Of a stretch of 64,000 nt of DNA, positions 1,871 to 53,564 are shown one piece after another (position 1 is the first letter of the stretch; each line of letters opens with the position of its first letter). The DNA is taken from assembly GCA_016181305.1 (NCBI GenBank), contig JACOZN010000013.1, positions 15,686 to 79,685 on the forward strand, given 5' to 3'. The stretch is from Candidatus Woesearchaeota archaeon. GTDB taxonomy: Archaea; Nanobdellota; Nanobdellia; Woesearchaeales; GW2011-AR4. Under the pieces are notes generated by a model, which had not been told where the DNA came from, did no database searches, and was given only the letters and a program-made list of their open reading frames with translations. The position numbers and the translations under genes were made by a program.

Positions 1871-2056
1871 GACTGCGGTAGTTTAATGGCAGAATAAGCG
1901 GCTGTGGAGCAACCTTTTCTTTTGCAAAGAAAAGCTTGACCAAAAGAAAGGCACTCACGAGGTGGTGGGGTAAACCCCACTGGGATTAAGCATTACTTCA
2001 TGATGGGAAGGTTGTGTAGAGCCCGCTTGGCGCGAGTTCGATTCTCGCCCGCGGTC
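1871..2056 (+). tRNA. tRNA-His(GTG) with encoded G-1 and a 114-nt intron at 37/38 (1908-2021)
   Basis: Acceptor ACTGCGG/CCGCGGT plus G-1:C73; anticodon stem AGCGG/CCGCT; T arm GCGAG-TTCGATT-CTCGC; BHB with central helix CTGT/GTAG and outer helix GCAACCT/AGGTTGT. Confidence 0.93.
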
Positions 2057-4036: not shown

Positions 4037-4372
4037 GCAGGGCTTGAATAAGCCGCCTTTTGTCAGGCCCCGAGTGTGACATGAAAATCACGACAGCCTG
4101 CCTTAGCATTAAACTAAGCGTCTTTTAAGACTTGCACCAGCCAGGGCTCACCGTTTCACCCATGCTGCAAAAACGTCAGTTGGTTAGCTCGATTCCCTCG
4201 CAGGAACCTTCACAAATTTCATCCTTAATTGCAGCGGTCTCGTTTCTGAGTGGTTGCCCCCTATTGCTAGGGCTCGCTTCCGCGAGTGGCTCTGATCAGT
4301 CAGCAAGCCTTTGAGGCTTGAGTGGGCGGACTTTCCTCAGTTGCAAAAACCGAAGCTAAGTACAAACCCTGC
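4037..4372 (-). ncRNA. rnpB: RNase P RNA
   Basis: Minus strand has GAGGAAAGTCCGCCCAC, AGAAACGAGACC, GGGTGAAACGG, GGTGCAAG and AAGGCGGCTTAT; termini GCAGGGTTTG/CAAGCCCTGC form P1. Confidence 0.95.
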
Positions 4373-12525: not shown

Positions 12526-12843
12526 TCAGCCGAATAAAGCTCCCAAGCCGGCTGCTGCAGCTTCCTCTGATTTCTTCTCTTCAGCTGCCTTCTTTGCATG
12601 GTCTGCCTTTGCGTCATGCTTTGCCTCATGAGTTCCAGCTGCTGCCGGAGCTGCAACTGCAACAGGCATTGCCGCCTTTTCGATTGCCTCTTCTATGTTG
12701 ACTCCTTCCAAGGCTGCAACCAATGCTTTGGCTCTTGCATCGTCCACTTTCACATGGGCTGCCTCGAGCACCTTCTTTACATTTGCTTCGTCTACTTTTT
12801 GCCCTGCCTTGTGAAGCAACATAGCTGCGTACACGTATTCCAT
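12526..12843 (-). CDS. rpl12: 50S ribosomal stalk protein P1/L12
   Basis: [11 protein letters not shown]...[10 protein letters not shown]. Confidence 0.98.
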
Positions 12844-12899: not shown

Positions 12900-12943
12900 A
12901 GCGGATTACTTTTATCGCCTATGCAGCGCAAAGTCGCTCTCGT
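12900..12943 (-). ncRNA. ACGAG bulged-hairpin motif, copy C
   Basis: ACGAG AGCG ACTTT [17 nt] AAAGT AATC CGCT; same geometry as three other copies. Confidence 0.75.
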
Positions 12944-12998: not shown

Positions 12999-14111
12999 TT
13001 AACTTTTATCCTTTTTATCCTGCCCTTCTATTGCCTTTTTATGTATATCGTGATAAATATTTTCCACTTGCTTGACTTCCTGCTGCTTTTCCCTCATTTT
13101 AATGTTTGCTTCAAGCTCTTCTCTTGTCGGAGCTTTTATTTCTGCTGATTCGTGTTTTTCTGCCATTTCTTTTTTTTCTGCTGGCTGCTCATGCTTTTCT
13201 TCTTTGCGCTCTGCTTGAATTTCGTGCTTAGTTTCAACAACTTCTATGTTTGCAGTTGTTTTCAGGCTGAGCATCTGCTGCTGGGCTTTGCCGAGCAGGA
13301 AATCAATGATTCCTTTATCAAAAATATTCTGCGCAATGCCAATCGCTTTTGCATCGTTGTAGGCTTTCCCAATCAGCAGGTTTATGTTGCTTTTTGTTGG
13401 ATAGCTTATGCTGAAAGCAAGGTTGAATGCCCATCTTGAGGCATTGCTTAGCCTGTTTTTGTACTCGGACTCGTCAACCGACAAAACATCTCTTGTGTAG
13501 ATTAATCCATTTTCATAGACAGCAACCAAGTCCAAGCCAACTTCCATTGGCTGTATTCCCAGCCTTGTCAAAATCTCTGCAACCTTTGGCTTTATCTTTT
13601 CCCCTGATTTTACAACAACAACGTCTTCTTTTATGGCAACCTTGCCGCCTTCGACTCCTGACTTTATGCCAGCCATTGCAAGCTCTCCAATTATCGGGCC
13701 AGGCGCAAATGAGGTTGCTCCTTTGTTGACAATGATGTCCCTTGGAGCTGTTTGATTGGCTTTTGCAGGAGCTGGACTCTTGCTTTTCTGCAGGGTTTTG
13801 CTCAGCTTGAACGGATTTTCCTTTGTGAAGATTAAAGCAGGCATTCCGCCAAGATGCGCTTCAATGCTTTCAATGCCTTTCTTTTTTTGCTTTGTTGCTG
13901 CAATGGCAAGCTTCATCAGCCTTCTTTTTGTCATTGTCATGACGAATTTTCCCCTTAATTGCGCACGCATGGTTTGCAGCTGCGGAGCAGGCAAATTTTC
14001 CATGTTTACAACTGCTATGATGGGGTACTCACTGATGAGATTTATGAGATTGCCTACAATTTCCTTTTTGTAGTCAGCTACATGAGCCTGCACTTTTGAT
14101 ATTTGTTCCAT
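12999..14111 (-). CDS. rplP0: 50S ribosomal protein uL10/P0
   Basis: QLQTMRAQLR, PAPAKANQTAP, TSFAPGPII. Confidence 0.97.
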   Translation of the reverse strand: MEQISKVQAHVADYKKEIVGNLINLISEYPIIAVVNMENLPAPQLQTMRAQLRGKFVMTMTKRRLMKLAIAATKQKKKGIESIEAHLGGMPALIFTKENPFKLSKTLQKSKSPAPAKANQTAPRDIIVNKGATSFAPGPIIGELAMAGIKSGVEGGKVAIKEDVVVVKSGEKIKPKVAEILTRLGIQPMEVGLDLVAVYENGLIYTRDVLSVDESEYKNRLSNASRWAFNLAFSISYPTKSNINLLIGKAYNDAKAIGIAQNIFDKGIIDFLLGKAQQQMLSLKTTANIEVVETKHEIQAERKEEKHEQPAEKKEMAEKHESAEIKAPTREELEANIKMREKQQEVKQVENIYHDIHKKAIEGQDKKDKS

Positions 14112-17216: not shown

Positions 17217-17489
17217 ATGCCGCATGAACTTCATCCAAAAATGAAAAAATCTGAATGCCCGCATAATTCCGAAATTAAGATTACCAAATCAAGCAAGAAG
17301 GAATGCGAGGTTTGCGGCGACAAGGAGCATCTTAGGATTTGCACGTCATGCGGCAAAGTTCATTGCTGTGAATCGCATCAAGCGCACGACACAGAGCATT
17401 CCAGGAAAACAGGGCATCCTATAATCAAGACAATACACTGTGATTATGATTTCATTTGGTGCTATAAGTGCAATGCTTATTTGGTTTGA
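17217..17489 (+). CDS. Stand-alone UBP-type (ZnF-UBP) zinc finger protein
   Basis: CPH...CEVC..LRICTSCGKVHCCES..AHDTEHSRKTGHPII..WCYKC pattern. Confidence 0.88.
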   Translation: MPHELHPKMKKSECPHNSEIKITKSSKKECEVCGDKEHLRICTSCGKVHCCESHQAHDTEHSRKTGHPIIKTIHCDYDFIWCYKCNAYLV

Positions 17490-17563: not shown

Positions 17564-17607
17564 ACGAGAGCGTCCTCTAAAAGTAATTGTAAAGGAGGAA
17601 ACCCGCT
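17564..17607 (+). ncRNA. ACGAG bulged-hairpin motif, copy A
   Basis: ACGAG AGCG TCCTC [17 nt] GAGGA AACC CGCT; 38/44 identical to copy B. Confidence 0.75.
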
Positions 17608-17634: not shown

Positions 17635-18543
17635 ATGCTACAAAGAAGAAACTCAAGAAAAGTAAAAGTCGGAAAATTGCACATTGGGGGAGATGCGCCG
17701 ATAACAGTCCAGTCAATGACAACCACTGATACAACTGACGTAAAGGCAACTATCAAGCAGATTCAAGGATTGGAAGATGTTGGCTGCGATATTGTGAGGG
17801 TTTCTGCGCCTACAATGGAGGCTGCAAAGGCGTTGAAAGAAATTAAGGAGAATATAAGCATTCCTCTTGTTGTTGACATTCATTTTGATTACCGCATAGC
17901 GTTAGAGGCGGTAAAATATGTTGACAAGTTAAGGATTAATCCTGGCAACATTGGAAACACTGACAAGGTTCAGCAGGTTGTAAATGCGTGCAAAAATTAT
18001 GGAGTTTCAATGAGAATTGGAGTGAATCTTGGCTCTCTTGAGAGGGATTTGTTTGAAAAGTACGGGTACGCGCCTGAGGCAATGGTTGAAAGCGCAATGA
18101 GGCATGTCAAAATTCTTGAGGACTTGGATTTTTACAACACAATCGTTTCATTGAAAGCATCTGATGTCACTAGAATGGTGAAAGCGTATAGATTGTTTGC
18201 AGAAAAAACTGATTATCCGCTGCATCTTGGGGTTACAGAAGCAGGAAGCAAGATTCCAGGGACTGTGAAGTCAGCAATATGCGCAAGGACAGAGGTTGAT
18301 GTGATTAAACTGGTTGAGCAATTGGAAAATGCAACTGAAAGGGTAAAAAAGCCGATAAAGGTTGCAATCATGGGATGCGCTGTCAACGGGCCGGGCGAAT
18401 CACGAAAAGCTGACATCGGGATTGTAGGCGCTCCTGGAAATCATTTGTTGTACAAGGAAGGCAAGATTGTAAAAAGAGTCAATGACAATGAGATTTATGA
18501 AGTTCTTCTGAAGGAGATAAATGAGATGGAGAATGGTAAATAA
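17635..18543 (+). CDS. ispG: HMBPP synthase IspG with an in-frame internal deletion
   Basis: VQSMT, VDIHFDY, RINPGNIG, RIGVN.GSL, PLHLGVTEAG, MGCAVNGPGE; GTVKSAI joins directly to CARTEV. Confidence 0.92.
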   Translation: MLQRRNSRKVKVGKLHIGGDAPITVQSMTTTDTTDVKATIKQIQGLEDVGCDIVRVSAPTMEAAKALKEIKENISIPLVVDIHFDYRIALEAVKYVDKLRINPGNIGNTDKVQQVVNACKNYGVSMRIGVNLGSLERDLFEKYGYAPEAMVESAMRHVKILEDLDFYNTIVSLKASDVTRMVKAYRLFAEKTDYPLHLGVTEAGSKIPGTVKSAICARTEVDVIKLVEQLENATERVKKPIKVAIMGCAVNGPGESRKADIGIVGAPGNHLLYKEGKIVKRVNDNEIYEVLLKEINEMENGK

Positions 18544-30024: not shown

Positions 30025-31077
30025 ATGGAATTTTCGTTAGATGGGGCTCAAGACATGAGCGGTTTGGTAGGACAGGCGAACATAAAGGTTATAGGCGTTG
30101 GAGGAGCCGGCAATAACATGGTTGGCTGGCTCTACAAAAAGGGCATCAAAGGCGCTGAGATAATAGCATGCAACACAGACAAGCAGCATCTTGGCATCAT
30201 CGATGCTGACCGTAAGTTCCTGATTGGAAAAGGCGTTACAAGAGGGCTTGGATGCGGAGGCTTTCCCGAGAAAGGGGCTGAGGCTGCAAAAGAATCTATG
30301 AATGAGCTGAAAGAAAGCCTGAAAGGGGCTGACATGGTTTTTGTATGTGCCGGCATGGGCGGCGGCACGGGAACAGGAGCTGCCCCTGTTGTAGGGCACC
30401 TTGCAAAAGACACAGGCTCTATTGTAATCGGCACTGTCACAATGCCTTTCAAGATTGAAAGGGCAAGGGTTGACAAGGCTGAGTTTGGATTGCAGCAGCT
30501 TAGGCAAATTTCTGATACAGTAATCGTGATTGACAACAATAGGCTGGTGCAGATTGCAGGCAATTTGCCTATACAGCAGGCATTTGCAGTTGCAAACGAG
30601 CTTGTTGCAACTATGATAAAAGGCATTGTAGAGACGATTGCAGTTCCTTCCCTTGTCAATCTGGACTATGCTGATGTAAAAGCCATAATGCAGAACGGCG
30701 GAGTTGCTGTAATCGGAGTCGGCTCTTCTGACACTAACAGCAGGGTTGATGAAGCTGTCAAAGGAGCTTTGGCAAACCCATTATTAGAAGTTGATTACAG
30801 GGGCGCAACAGGCGCTTTAATCCATGTAGTGGGCGGGCCTGACATGACATTGGATGACATCAACAGGATAGGTGAGCTTGTGACAGAAAGCCTTGACCAG
30901 GATGCAAATGTCATCTGGGGCGCCCGAGTTGTCGAGGACATGAAAGGCAGGATAACTGTCATGACTATCATCACAGGGGTTAAAAGCCCCTGGGTGCTTG
31001 GCAAGGTTGACCACTCAATACCATCCGCAGAAGCAGTTGCGGTTTCGCAGGAGCTAGGGATAGAACTGGTTCATTAG
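30025..31077 (+). CDS. ftsZ: Cell division protein FtsZ
   Basis: IGVGGAGNN, GMGGGTGTG, VNLDYADV, NVIWGAR. Confidence 0.98.
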   Translation: MEFSLDGAQDMSGLVGQANIKVIGVGGAGNNMVGWLYKKGIKGAEIIACNTDKQHLGIIDADRKFLIGKGVTRGLGCGGFPEKGAEAAKESMNELKESLKGADMVFVCAGMGGGTGTGAAPVVGHLAKDTGSIVIGTVTMPFKIERARVDKAEFGLQQLRQISDTVIVIDNNRLVQIAGNLPIQQAFAVANELVATMIKGIVETIAVPSLVNLDYADVKAIMQNGGVAVIGVGSSDTNSRVDEAVKGALANPLLEVDYRGATGALIHVVGGPDMTLDDINRIGELVTESLDQDANVIWGARVVEDMKGRITVMTIITGVKSPWVLGKVDHSIPSAEAVAVSQELGIELVH

Positions 31078-31200: not shown

Positions 31201-31246
31201 AGCGGTTCACTTTCATCACGCTGTTAAATCCAAAAGTCGCTCTCGT
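31201..31246 (-). ncRNA. ACGAG bulged-hairpin motif, copy D
   Basis: ACGAG AGCG ACTTT [19 nt] AAAGT GAAC CGCT; flanked by a 12-bp IR TTCAATAAAACA (31184-31195 / 31272-31283). Confidence 0.72.
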
Positions 31247-31306: not shown

Positions 31307-31957
31307 TCACTTTTTCCTAATCTTTTCCTTTAATTTATTAACATGCTTCTTAATGTGCTTATGTGTCCTTTGCACAGCGCTTTTTATCACAGGGCTCCAC
31401 ATTCCAAGGGCTGTCTTTGGCCCTTCAATCCTGCCCCACCATTTCTCGAAGTACATGGTATGCTCTATTCTGTATTTTGGAGGCGCTGTCGGAGTTTCAT
31501 CGGCATAGCCTATTGTTATGATTCCCTGCACATTGACATGCTCAGGCAGATTGCAAAGCCTTCTTATTTCCTCTTCATCAAAAGCCCCAACCCAGCAGCT
31601 TCCCAGTCCAAGCGAGTGTGCTGTAAGCAGCATGTTTTCAATCGCAGCAGCAGCGCCCTGTATCGTGTAAAGCCTTACACCCCTTGTGCCGTAATACCTT
31701 TCAGCCTTTTCCGGCTCGCCCACAACAACAATATGTATCGGAGCGTCTGCCATCCAATGCTGCTGCACGCTAGCCTCTGCGATATCCCTTCTTTTATCCT
31801 CGTTCTTGACAACAATAAACTTAAGATTGAAAATGTTGCCTGCGCAAGGGGCATATTTGCCTGCCTGAAGAATCTCGACAATATCGTCCCATGGAACATC
31901 CTTTTCCTTGTACTTTCTTATCGAGCGCCTGGTCCTGATGCAGTCAAAAACATCCAT
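31307..31957 (-). CDS. Nitroreductase family protein
   Basis: IRTRRSIRKY, AAAAIENMLLTAHSLGLGSCWVGAF, IITIGY. Confidence 0.95.
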   Translation of the reverse strand: MDVFDCIRTRRSIRKYKEKDVPWDDIVEILQAGKYAPCAGNIFNLKFIVVKNEDKRRDIAEASVQQHWMADAPIHIVVVGEPEKAERYYGTRGVRLYTIQGAAAAIENMLLTAHSLGLGSCWVGAFDEEEIRRLCNLPEHVNVQGIITIGYADETPTAPPKYRIEHTMYFEKWWGRIEGPKTALGMWSPVIKSAVQRTHKHIKKHVNKLKEKIRKK

Positions 31958-50042: not shown

Positions 50043-50342
50043 ATGGTGAAAATCGCAGTTGTAGGCGGAAGCGAATTTATTGTAGGATTTCAGTTAGCCG
50101 GCATAAAGGACACTATGGAAGTAACAGGCAATTACTTCAATGAAATGAAGAACATGAAAAGCAGAAAAGACATAGGGATTGTTGTGGTGGACGAGAAGAT
50201 AATGGAAAGATTGGACATCCACCAGAGGCTTGACATAGAGGCTTCTGTCGAGCCTGTTTTTATCCCTGTATCAACAAAGGCTGAGCAGGACAGCCTGAAA
50301 AGACTGATTAAAAAGTCGATTGGAATAGATTTGTGGAAATAA
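50043..50342 (+). CDS. atpF: A/V-type ATP synthase subunit F
   Basis: [25 protein letters not shown]. Confidence 0.94.
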
Positions 50343-50344
50343 AA

Positions 50345-52069
50345 ATGGACAAAGGAGTTTTGTACAGGATTGCAGGCCCTGTTGTTGTAGCCAAAGGCAT
50401 AAAGCCCAGGATGTACGATGTGTGCAGGGTTGGCAACGAGAAACTGATGGGCGAGGTAATCCAGATTGAAGGAGAGAAAACCATCATTCAGGTTTATGAG
50501 GATACTTCAGGCATTAAGCCGGGAGAGCCGGTTGTCAACACAGGCGAGCCTTTAAAGGTCGAGCTCGGCCCCGGAATGCTCGGCAGCATTTATGACGGAA
50601 TCCAAAGGCCGCTGCCTGTCCTTATCAAGCAGATGGGCGACTTCATAAAAAGGGGAGTTGATGCGCCCGGGCTTGACTATGCAAAAAAATGGGACTTCAG
50701 GGCTGTTGTCAAGAGCGGCGAGCAGGTTGCCGGCGGCAGCATAATAGGCGAGATAGAAGAAAATCCAGGCATTATGCATAAGATTCTTGTGCCTCCCAAT
50801 CAAAAAGGAAAAATTGCGGAAATCAAGTCAGGAAAGTTTACAGTCAATGATGTCATAGGAAAACTTGACAACGGGTTTGAGCTGAAGCTGAAGCACAACT
50901 GGCCTGTAAGGGCTGCAAGGCCTGTAAGCTCAAAATTAAAGCCTGAAGCGCCTTTGATAACAGGGCAGAGAATTTTTGATGCATTGTTTCCGCTGGCAAA
51001 AGGAGGAGTTGCTGCAATACCTGGGCCTTTCGGCGCAGGAAAGACAGTTTCCCAGCAGCAGCTGGCGAAATGGAGCGATGCTGACATCATTGTTTATGTA
51101 GGCTGCGGCGAAAGGGGAAATGAGATGACAGAGGTTCTTACAGAGTTTCCCGAGCTTATTGATCCAAAAAGCGGCAAGCCCCTGATGAACAGGACAGTGC
51201 TCATTGCAAACACAAGCAACATGCCTGTTGCGGCAAGGGAGGCAAGCATCTATACAGGCATTACAATTGCAGAGTATTTCAGGGACATGGGATACTCTGT
51301 TGCATTGATGGCTGACTCAACTTCAAGATGGGCGGAAGCGATGAGGGAAATTTCATCGAGACTGGAAGAGATGCCGGGCGAGGAAGGATATCCTGCATAT
51401 CTGTCAACAAGGCTTGCGCAGTTTTATGAAAGATCTGGAAGAGTAATTCCGCTTGGCACAAAAAAAGAAGGAAGCGTGAGCGTAATCGGGGCTGTTTCGC
51501 CTCCGGGAGGAGATTTTTCAGAGCCTGTAACCCAAAGCACTTTGAGGGTTACAAAAGTGTTCTGGGCTCTTGATGCAAAGCTGGCGCAGAGAAGGCATTT
51601 TCCCAGCATAAACTGGCTTACTTCATATTCGCTGTACCTGAACGCCCTTGAGCCGTGGTTTGCCAAAAATGTCTCGTCAGGGTGGAGTGGCCTGGTGACA
51701 GAGATGATGGGGGTGCTGCAGGAAGAGGAAAAACTGCTTGAGATTGTGCAGTTGGTAGGCTCTGACGCGCTGCCTGAAAGGCAGCAACTGACTTTGCTTG
51801 TTGCTCGCTTGATAAGGGAGGTTTTGCTGCAGCAGAATGCATTCCATGAAATCGACACATTCTGCGAGCTGAAGAAGACATACTCCATCATGAAGACAAT
51901 ATCCAATTTTTCAAAAATGGCGAACACAGCAATGGACTCTGGCATGAGGGTGCACCAGATACTTGCGGCAAAGGCAAAGGACAGGCTGGGCGAAGTCAAG
52001 TTTGTAAAGGATTACGAAAGACTGCTTGATGAATTAACGAAACAGATGGAAAAAGAATTGAAGGCTTGA
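50345..52069 (+). CDS. atpA: A/V-type ATP synthase subunit A
   Basis: [42 protein letters not shown]. Confidence 0.98.
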
Positions 52070-52129
52070 AAAAATTATGATTAAGGAAACAAATAATAAA
52101 ATTCATTAAAAAATTAAAAATAAAAAAAC

Positions 52130-52173
52130 ACGAGAGCGTCCTCTAAATGTAATTGCGTTGGAGGAGACCCGCT
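52130..52173 (+). ncRNA. ACGAG bulged-hairpin motif, copy B
   Basis: ACGAG AGCG TCCTC [17 nt] GAGGA GACC CGCT between atpA and atpB. Confidence 0.75.
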
Positions 52174-52193
52174 TGTGATTTAAAAAACATAAA

Positions 52194-53564
52194 ATGAAGG
52201 AATACAAGACAATCAACAGAGTTGCAGGGCCTTTGATTTTCGTCGAGAAGACAGAGCCTATCGGGTATGCGGACATAGTTAAGATTGCATTGCCGAATGG
52301 TGACATAAAAAACGGGCAGGTCCTGGACACAAGCAACGACATTGTTGTTGTGCAGGTTTTTGAGGGAACTTCAGGCATTGATGTTGATTCAAGGGTGAAA
52401 TTTCTCGGGGACACCTTAAAGCTTAATGTCTCAAAGGACATGCTCGGCAGGATTCTAAGCGGCTCAGGCAAGCCGATTGACAATGGCCCTGAAGTAATCC
52501 CAGAGAAAAGGCTTGACATTATCGGAGCAGCTATAAATCCTTTTGCAAGGGGCTCTCCGCATGACTTCATACAAACTGGATTGTCGACAATTGATGCAAT
52601 GAACACTCTTGTACGAGGGCAGAAACTGCCTTTGTTTTCAGGCTCGGGACTGCCGCACAATGAGATTGCTTTGCAGATTGCCAGGCAGGCAAAAGTCATA
52701 GGAAAGCAGGAAAATTTCGTTGTTGTATTCGCGGCAATGGGCATAACAAATGAGGAAGCCCAGTATTTTATCAATGACTTCAGGCAGACAGGCGCTTTGG
52801 AAAGAAGCGTTGTCTTTTTGAACCTTGCAAATGATCCTGCTGTTGAAAGGCTTGTCACGCCAAGAATGGCATTGACTGCAGCGGAGTATTTTGCATACGA
52901 GCATGACGCCCATGTCCTTGTTATTTTGACAGACATGACAAACTATTGCGAGTCTTTGAGGGAGATAGGGGCTGCGCGTGAGGAGATTCCGGGAAGAAGG
53001 GGCTATCCCGGGTACATGTACACTGACTTGGCAACAATCTATGAAAGGGCTGGAGTCATAAAAGGAAAAAAAGGCAGCGTCACTCAAATCCCTATCCTTA
53101 CAATGGTGGGCGATGATATCACGCATCCGATTCCTGATTTGACCGGCTACATAACAGAAGGGCAGATTGTCCTGATGAGGGAGCTGCACAGGAAGGGAAT
53201 CTATCCATGCATTGACGTCCTGCCGTCGCTTTCAAGGCTGATGAACCTTGGCATAGGGCCGACAAGGACAAGGGAGGACCACAAGCAGGCAAGCGACCAG
53301 ATGTACGCTGCCTATGCAGAAGGAAGGGATTTGAGAGGGCTTGTCGCAATAGTCGGCGAGGAAGCCTTAAGCGAAAGGGACAGGAAACTGCTTAAGTTCG
53401 CTGCTGAGTTCGAGGACAAGTTTGTAAGGCAGCGTAGAGATGAGGACAGGAGCATTACAGAAACTCTTGACCTGGGATGGGGGTTATTGGGAATACTGCC
53501 GGAGAATGAGCTGACAAGGATAAGCCCTGAATTGAGGAAGAAATATTACAAAAAGATGGAGTGA
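52194..53564 (+). CDS. atpB: A/V-type ATP synthase subunit B
   Basis: [51 protein letters not shown]. Confidence 0.98.

Follow-up and report, generated by a model that had tools for sequence, protein, structure and literature searches.

The hairpin motif at positions 52130–52173 of the 64-kb window (the whole stretch of archaeal DNA analysed here) is a member of an undescribed family of short dispersed repeats, referred to as M1, which is confined to a single genus and belongs to an already known kind of element, the structured repeats of the REP/MITE type. M1 is a non-autonomous, genus-specific unit of about 58 nt, and no description of it was found in the searchable literature. The evidence for this assignment comes from the size and distribution of the family, from a fold maintained by compensated changes, from a pronounced strand preference and from gains and losses at orthologous sites. 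As to its role, we consider it an even call that the M1 hairpin functions at the RNA level, as a protein-bound structure affecting the processing or stability of the transcripts that carry it.

M1 copies in the window

Re-reading of the sequence reproduced exactly the coordinates and the anatomy given for four copies in the preliminary description: a fixed ACGAG is followed by AGCG, a 5-bp stem, a loop (17, 17, 17 and 19 nt), the returning strand of the stem, a 4-nt bulge (GACC, AACC, AATC and GAAC) and CGCT. The copies and the features surrounding the one between the ATPase genes are as follows (P1 and P2 denote the outer and inner helices).

50333–52069, plus strand: atpA, subunit A of the A-type ATPase, upstream of M1 (Pfam ATP-synt_ab, ATP-synt_ab_Xtn and ATP-synt_VA_C)
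52070–52129, plus strand: A-rich, G-poor tract from the atpA stop codon to M1, part of a lineage-specific 124-nt spacer
52126–52180, plus strand: full conserved unit of the atpA–atpB copy (AA-W-M, the M1 core, T-K-T-G-A-T-K)
52130–52173, plus strand: M1 core in the atpA–atpB spacer (P1 AGCG/CGCT, P2 TCCTC/GAGGA, 17-nt loop, bulge GACC)
52194–53564, plus strand: atpB, subunit B of the A-type ATPase, downstream of M1 (Pfam)
17564–17607, plus strand: M1 between a zf-UBP ORF (17217–17489) and gcpE/ispG (17635–18543)
12900–12943, minus strand: M1 between rplP0 (12999–14111) and rpl12 (12526–12843)
31201–31246, minus strand: M1 located 60 nt past the stop codon of a nitroreductase gene (31307–31957, minus strand)

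The last three copies were assigned from the sequence and with the covariance model described below (R1), and their neighbouring genes by Pfam. The gap between atpA and atpB is indeed 124 nt long, both genes being recognised by Pfam, and the distance from the upstream stop codon to M1 (60, 74, 55 and 60 nt for the copies at 52130, 17564, 12900 and 31201, respectively) agrees with the range of 55–75 nt proposed earlier. The start codon of atpB is found 20 nt 3' of M1 and, in this genome, is devoid of a Shine-Dalgarno sequence; the copy at 12900–12943 is located upstream of the retained Shine-Dalgarno sequence (AGGAGG) of the rpl12 spacer. The 9-mer ACGAGAGCG has four exact occurrences in the window; with up to one mismatch it was observed 10 times versus 4.3 expected, a count reached in none of 100 shuffles. 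The atpA–atpB copy scores 77.4 bits with R1 (E-value 8.8e-12), and its predicted fold is substantially more stable in the sense (−18.2 kcal/mol, z −3.4) than in the antisense orientation (−11.5 kcal/mol), while the hairpin of the fourth window copy is thermodynamically weak (z −0.6).

Among other RNA genes, the window encodes an archaeal RNase P RNA (4040–4369, minus strand; 112.8 bits with the Rfam model) and a tRNA with a long intron (1872–2056, plus strand). Only 14 tRNA genes, the majority of them intron-bearing, were detected by ARAGORN in the whole assembly, and none of those detected adjoins M1.

Family size and distribution

The family is considerably larger than the four copies originally listed. 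In the genome that contains the window (G000; 1.07 Mb in 22 contigs, 78% complete; hereafter genomes are denoted by G numbers and contigs of G000 by C numbers), a gapped pattern matched 19 copies versus 0 for the reversed control. The covariance model R1, built from the alignment of these 19 copies (A1), retrieved 30 copies in the same genome, all of them outside long ORFs. Applied to the relatives, R1 detected M1 in 28 of the 36 further species searched within this GTDB genus, and the 24 other families of the order that were searched yielded no copy. The copy number across the genus ranges from 0 to 97 per genome, the highest value being that of G001. Outside of this lineage, a loose 14-base gapped pattern run against sequence collections returned chance matches only; none of the 80 viral matches listed from IMG/VR fits the covariance model, and a stricter pattern revealed no copy in viral contigs.

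M1 subfamilies are genome-specific. For 30 out of 32 copies of G001 the nearest neighbour is another G001 copy, suggesting amplification or homogenisation within this genome.

Fold, covariation and strand preference

The alignment of 96 copies from about 30 species (A3), with the conserved flanks defined by profiles on 56 and 96 copies, yields the consensus AA-W-M, ACGAG, 4-bp P1, 5-bp P2, a variable loop of 16–19 nt, P2', the bulge R-A-H-C, P1' and T-K-T-G-A-T. The conserved unit is slightly longer than first proposed, extending by AA-W-M before ACGAG and by T-K-T-G-A-T-K after CGCT. Standard pairs are formed by 98.4% of the stem cells of this alignment (100% in the inner helix), and the bulge on the 3' strand is 4 nt long in all copies. 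The earlier statement that the inner stem covaries completely rested on two stem types; in the set of 96 copies, changes on both sides of the pair are seen in five out of ten pairs, comprising three of the five inner and two outer ones. The observed values of covariation and pairing were reached in none of 500 shuffles, and all slid registers score far lower. Even the lowest-scoring copies of G001 still pair, contributing further compensated variants of P1 (AGCT/AGCT and AACG/CGTT), and the copies at the rps19e site include a compensated change from A-U to G-C in G035. The stems and the foot are almost invariant and the loop is near saturation (mean pairwise identity of 0.48); a third stem inside the loop was no more stable than in shuffled loops (p = 0.22).

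The sense RNA folds better than the antisense RNA in 82 out of 90 copies (−13.0 versus −9.5 kcal/mol, p ∼1e-13), because several pairs of the foot are of the G-U type. The Rfam comparison (performed for the window at the gathering threshold, and for 39 loci at E≤1 and E≤5) revealed no overlap of any known family with M1 or the adjoining modules, in line with the initial failure to match the motif to any riboswitch, ribozyme or leader. Overall, the searches that could have dissolved the proposed family returned no Rfam match on the one hand, and additional copies with additional covariation on the other.

As a separate observation, the M1 copy at C18:43559–43654 carries a hairpin insertion of ∼50 nt nested in its loop, and a similar case is present in G001, illustrating that repeats insert into repeats.

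Gain and loss at orthologous sites

The turnover of M1 is rapid, with copies appearing and disappearing as species diverge. At the atpA–atpB junction, eight related species have a spacer of merely 4–20 nt with a GAGG Shine-Dalgarno sequence, and M1 is found only in G000, G014 and G017, the spacers of which are homologous. In other species the spacer is occupied by unrelated inserts, some of them whole genes; this junction is an insertion hot spot. In the P0–L12 spacer (12–30 nt in the closest relatives, including 12 nt in G015, the L12 protein of which is 96% identical to that of G000), three different subtypes of M1 are found in G000, G022 and G028, which points to independent gains. Both spacers, which had been suggested for comparison in the preliminary description, display the presence or absence of M1 depending on the species. 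At the zf-UBP/gcpE junction of G015 the stop codon is 1 nt before the gcpE start, and G000 has ∼150 extra bases. Finally, the G000 copy located at the 3' end of the PNP gene (C5 25670) is missing at the same site in G021 and G015; a block of 58 nt (AAAATC, M1 and TGTGATTT) is identical between this copy and the one at rps19e (C5 65467), 40 kb apart, which defines how long the copied unit is. At the gcpE, PNP and P0–L12 junctions we saw neither a target-site duplication nor terminal inverted repeats (besides the hairpin of M1 itself). Conservation of M1 at an orthologous site could be partly due to repeated insertion into a hot spot (as in the P0–L12 spacer) or to gene conversion between copies.

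The atpA–atpB junction of the relatives harbours several other types of inserts, such as an ORF of ∼240 aa in at least seven species, apparent gene pairs of the nucleotidyltransferase/HEPN type in two species, and other small hairpin repeats (AAAUGAAAGCAGCCUCACUAAC...).

Orientation, flanks and transcription

Between co-directional genes, M1 is oriented in the sense direction in ∼37 cases versus 3 antisense ones (∼16:2 in G000 and 21:1 in G001). Seven G000 copies are in divergent and three to four in convergent spacers, hence M1 is neither a purely 5' nor a purely 3' element. The initial placement of the motif inside core operons accordingly applies to some copies but neither to the seven divergent ones nor to the window copy at 31201–31246, which lies in a convergent spacer where the nitroreductase gene (minus strand) faces ftsZ (30025–31077, plus strand). 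The genes downstream of M1 encode ATPase subunit B, L12, S19e, IspG, a TyrRS-type synthetase, kinases, phosphorylases and peroxiredoxin, as well as proteins with no Pfam match.

The 35–45 nt preceding M1 are A-rich and nearly G-free (0–5% of G in the last 35 nt; 95 copies). A run of at least five A residues is located directly upstream of 95% of the copies, so that the antisense strand reads a T-run of at least five. On the sense strand, T-runs of this length within 25 nt 3' of M1 accompany 8% of the copies versus 12% of background windows; without any enrichment of this signal, the assignment of M1 as a sense oligo-T terminator was rejected.

The promoter box of G000, TTTAAATA, is sharply positioned 31–24 nt before start codons, which suggests that the mRNAs are mostly leaderless. 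No TATA box was found at a fixed distance from M1; with no TTTAAATA-type box so placed, a promoter role of M1 was rejected as well. Genes that start within ∼60 nt 3' of M1 lack the usual promoter at −27. In 14 out of 56 copies a weak CATTAA is seen ∼25 nt upstream of M1, which may be a remnant of a recurrent small hairpin motif, TCAATAACGATTGAACATTAA, observed in the A-rich spacers of many species. Across the genome, the promoter signal of genes with an upstream gap is very regular (an A-rich BRE followed by TTTAAATA), and Shine-Dalgarno-like sequences (GGTGA/GAGG) are present in a minority of genes only.

The rps19e locus allows one to place M1 with respect to a promoter. Throughout the genus this gene is preceded by a canonical TATA box (CCTTTTTAAA) and, 3' of it, by a conserved leader of ∼55 nt that forms two hairpins, and in many species M1 (often with a second module) is situated between this leader and the start codon. 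Since the canonical promoter is upstream of M1, the element lies there within the 5' UTR and, judging from its position, would be transcribed. Other species have 19–50 nt of plain sequence in place of M1, and the element is absent at rps19e in G021, G030, G003 and G007; any host function is therefore dispensable.

In a genome that otherwise has few leaders, the rps19e leader is itself a candidate for a ribosomal-protein leader; its hairpins have GCAA tetraloops (GCUAAC-GCAA-GUUAGC and CACC-GCAA-GGUG, at C5 ∼65350–65440 in G000). In G015 and G018, an insert of 175 nt with inverted ends (GTCAAAAACC.../...TTTTCGAC), a classical MITE shape, is located between M1 and the start codon; the rps19e loci of these two genomes are identical and may represent shared or cross-binned contigs.

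Composite elements

In G001, some 42–44 out of the 50 inspected M1 copies are followed, within 8–25 nt, by one of two conserved structured modules, M2 or M3. The same arrangement is common in many other species, the composites being 150–200 nt long. On the other hand, about two thirds of the copies in G000 have no such module and are located 18–60 nt before a start codon, and M2 is also found without M1. M2 has the form TAGGCGAGGC, a hairpin, GCCGAGCAC, a second hairpin and GGATTGAAA; the second of the two downstream modules contains GGGGCACCCAU. Neither M2 nor M3 has a match in Rfam.

M2 can also be written as (T)AGGCGAGGC, a covarying hairpin, GCCGAGCAC(A), a small hairpin and GGATTGAAA. Usually located ∼20 nt 3' of M1, this module has tandem G-A/A-G mismatches in its helix. 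At its 3' end it is similar to the ATTGAAA 5' handle of CRISPR repeats, and a TATA-like box frequently adjoins this end. M3, located directly 3' of M1, is composed of a GGCACUUUAAAG...GUGCC hairpin followed by GCGGGGCACCCAU...AUGGGUCGC. It is present at many G001 loci as well and may constitute an unannotated structured RNA family. The copies of the two modules in G000 are listed below.

C15:138498, minus strand: M2
C18:62927, plus strand: M2
C20 ∼26780, plus strand: M2
C2:5400–5545, minus strand: M3
C11:11900–12028, minus strand: M3
C21:60180–60322, minus strand: M3
C18:15340–15478, minus strand: M3
C8:2092–2200, plus strand: M3

Comparison with known repeats and RNA elements

M1 has counterparts among known repeats. 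Like the bacterial REP/BIME (REPIN) sequences, it is a short (35–45 nt) imperfect palindrome with a fixed 5' foot sequence and an extrahelical bulge, with intergenic copies numbering from tens to hundreds, and is expected to be transcribed as part of operons, in which REPs are known to stabilise the upstream mRNA. Unlike the REP/RAYT system, M1 occurs as single copies rather than inverted pairs, nearly all in sense orientation, in an archaeal host and in one genus only, and no Y1 gene was found in the genomes rich in M1. The Y1_Tnp domain (PF01797) gave no match in G000, G001, G017, G022, G027, G015 and G005, while the control genomes did give matches, and nine matches were obtained in G031, a genome without M1. 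With Y1 not found in the M1-richest genomes and commonest where M1 is absent, the REP/RAYT (HUH/Y1) assignment raised in the preliminary description is not supported. Its broader proposal, either a cis-acting RNA element or a REP-like hairpin, stands in so far as M1 is a structured family, folds on the sense strand, resides in spacers that are probably transcribed and shows the population behaviour of a mobile repeat. As to other mobilising enzymes, neither TnpB nor reverse transcriptase (RVT_1) was found in several M1-rich genomes (these assemblies being 78–90% complete), leaving the search among Y1, TnpB and RVT_1 without a candidate in those genomes.

M1 also shares features with MITE-type RNA repeats (Correia/NEMIS, ERIC/IRU and the Rickettsia palindromic elements), as all of these are non-autonomous, differ in their insertions among closely related genomes, reside at gene boundaries, are (for M1, by prediction) transcribed together with the adjacent genes, and can alter leaders or processing. 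The presence/absence polymorphism at orthologous sites and the amplification within a genome, as expected of MITEs, were both observed. The differences are the size of only ∼58 nt, the stems of M1 as the sole inverted repeats, no visible target-site duplication, no related autonomous element found with the Y1, TnpB and RVT_1 searches, and a free loop combined with covarying stems. A further parallel is the attC site of integrons, likewise an imperfect hairpin with extrahelical bases and a variable terminal loop that is recognised by its structure and has one orientation relative to genes. However, M1 lacks the GTTRRRY/RYYYAAC core sites, it is flanked by syntenic core genes rather than cassettes, and neither an array nor an integrase context was seen.

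Several RNA-based assignments were considered and rejected. The variable sequence of the loop and the diversity of the genes 3' of M1 argue against a riboswitch; there is no C/D arrangement with the proper spacing, as would be expected for box C/D RNA; and the longest complementarity between loop and genome (11.46 nt) is that of shuffled loops (11.3–11.5 nt), arguing against a guide sRNA.

Possible functions of M1

We infer that selection at the level of host transcripts, besides mobility, keeps the M1 fold, with an effect on RNA stability or processing. This reading is suggested by the stems remaining paired in nearly all copies while the loops are near saturation, by wobble pairs that favour the sense strand, and by compensated changes at a syntenic site. 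In the proposed mechanism, M1 would enter and leave the short non-coding spacers of compact genomes (5' leaders, intercistronic gaps and 3' tails) and would be tolerated almost exclusively in the orientation that places the hairpin on the sense transcript, after a tract rich in A and poor in G. The hairpin foot (ACGAGAGCG, the bulge and CCGCU) would most likely be where a trans-acting protein binds or cleaves, and the likeliest effect would be on the processing or stability of the mRNA segment carrying the hairpin. In the relatives, M1 may double as a 5' module of the longer composite structured elements. A more far-reaching version, which we consider unlikely, would make M1 a shared RNA handle read by a putative dedicated protein and marking 30–100 transcripts in each genome, in mRNA leaders, between cistrons and at the 5' ends of two modular structured-RNA families, for a common processing or stabilising step. 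Such a handle might even spread at the RNA level, which would account for both the strict sense orientation and the absence of any transposase.

The main alternative, which we regard as possible albeit doubtful, is that M1 is a purely selfish DNA hairpin of the REP/MITE type, the folded single strand of which is copied by an enzyme acting in trans; the fold would then be kept because the copies are young or homogenised, and the sense-only bias would be a by-product. The patchy copy number (0 to 97 within one genus), the genome-specific subfamilies, the recent identical 58-nt copy, the independent gains in the same P0–L12 spacer and the A-run upstream of 95% of the copies are all consistent with this view, as is a published census of MITEs that places a Woesearchaeal genome among the most MITE-dense archaea (PMC11602168). 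We retain it for three reasons: M1 is dispensable (at rps19e, in several species), reinsertion at a hot spot is documented, and the orientation bias has a passive explanation, since an antisense copy would put a T-run, the archaeal termination signal, inside a transcription unit. Nevertheless, several of the richest genomes yielded none of the enzymes that could be expected (Y1/HUH, TnpB and reverse transcriptase), and neither a target-site duplication nor terminal inverted repeats other than the hairpin were seen. Moreover, G-U pairs improve the fold of the sense strand, and the combination of loops near saturation with stems that pair even in the lowest-scoring copies is not expected from neutral decay after insertion. 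It is decidedly less probable that M1 represents a 5' domain or handle of small non-coding RNA genes or leaders preceding M2 and M3, the lone G000 copies being remnants or minimal members. The frequent M2/M3 modules within 8–25 nt of M1 in G001 and likewise in many species, as well as the copies in convergent spacers without a downstream gene, would fit such genes, and an antisense-placed copy (C11 12029), with a canonical TTTATATA box ∼60 nt upstream and an M3-type module after it, resembles a transcription unit of its own. Against this, no canonical TATA box keeps a constant spacing to M1 and an oligo-T terminator follows only 8% of the copies; M2 occurs without M1 and has, like M3, no Rfam match, and two thirds of the G000 copies stand alone before a start codon.

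The remaining two explanations invoke established archaeal machinery. That M1 is a site for a known reader of RNA structure, either an L7Ae kink-turn (5' CGAG with 3' UGAU) or a relaxed bulge-helix-bulge cut by the splicing endonuclease, appears very improbable to us. The conserved GA on both flanks beside the 4-bp helix is reminiscent of the former, and a central helix of exactly 4 bp with a bulge on the 3' strand of the latter. The 5' G-A hardly varies, but only ∼67–71% of the copies have the G of the 3' GA, and the geometry would require either an extra G17 or a 2-nt loop (the loop being 2 nt instead of 3 with G17-U59 paired). The bulge-helix-bulge was rejected as the bulge has 4 nt rather than 3 and the outer helix is no better than base composition, nor is it copy-specific (−3.9 kcal/mol for matched versus −3.7±0.2 kcal/mol for mismatched flanks); the covariation of positions −1 and +2 around M1 gave p = 0.08. 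In addition, every copy is intergenic, none being found within an ORF, tRNA or rRNA, as a spliceable insert could be. Finally, we see only a slim chance that M1 together with its A-rich tract serves as an orientation-specific insulator, transparent to sense transcription and stopping antisense or convergent transcription by the hairpin and T-run of the other strand. The upstream A-runs, the background level of T-runs on the sense side (8% versus 12%) and the occurrence in convergent spacers, where the opposing gene (e.g. ftsZ) needs a terminator, are what such an insulator would show. On the other hand, A-rich sense strands poor in T-runs are general in the transcribed spacers of this genus even without M1, the antisense RNA forms the weaker hairpin, most copies are flanked by co-directional genes, a setting without any known antisense unit, and oligo-T dependent termination in Archaea does not require a hairpin. 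Among these explanations we favour the reading of M1 as an RNA-level, protein-bound hairpin.

Significance

DPANN genomes are very small, gene-dense and mostly leaderless. One genus among them carries up to ∼100 fold-conserved 58-nt inserts inside essential transcription units, such as those of the ATP synthase, the L1-P0-L12 operon and the rps19e leader. Hardly anything is known of post-transcriptional regulation in organisms such as these archaea; should a host factor bind or cleave the M1 hairpin, it would offer a simple genome-wide handle on their mRNA processing. If, on the other hand, M1 is only selfish, it would exemplify a repeat that turns over fast in streamlined genomes without a recognisable transposase, and would also be of practical use in telling closely related Woesearchaeal lineages apart. 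Either way, M1 belongs in the libraries of RNA families and repeats, lest the spacers that contain it be misread as promoters, small ORFs or riboswitches.
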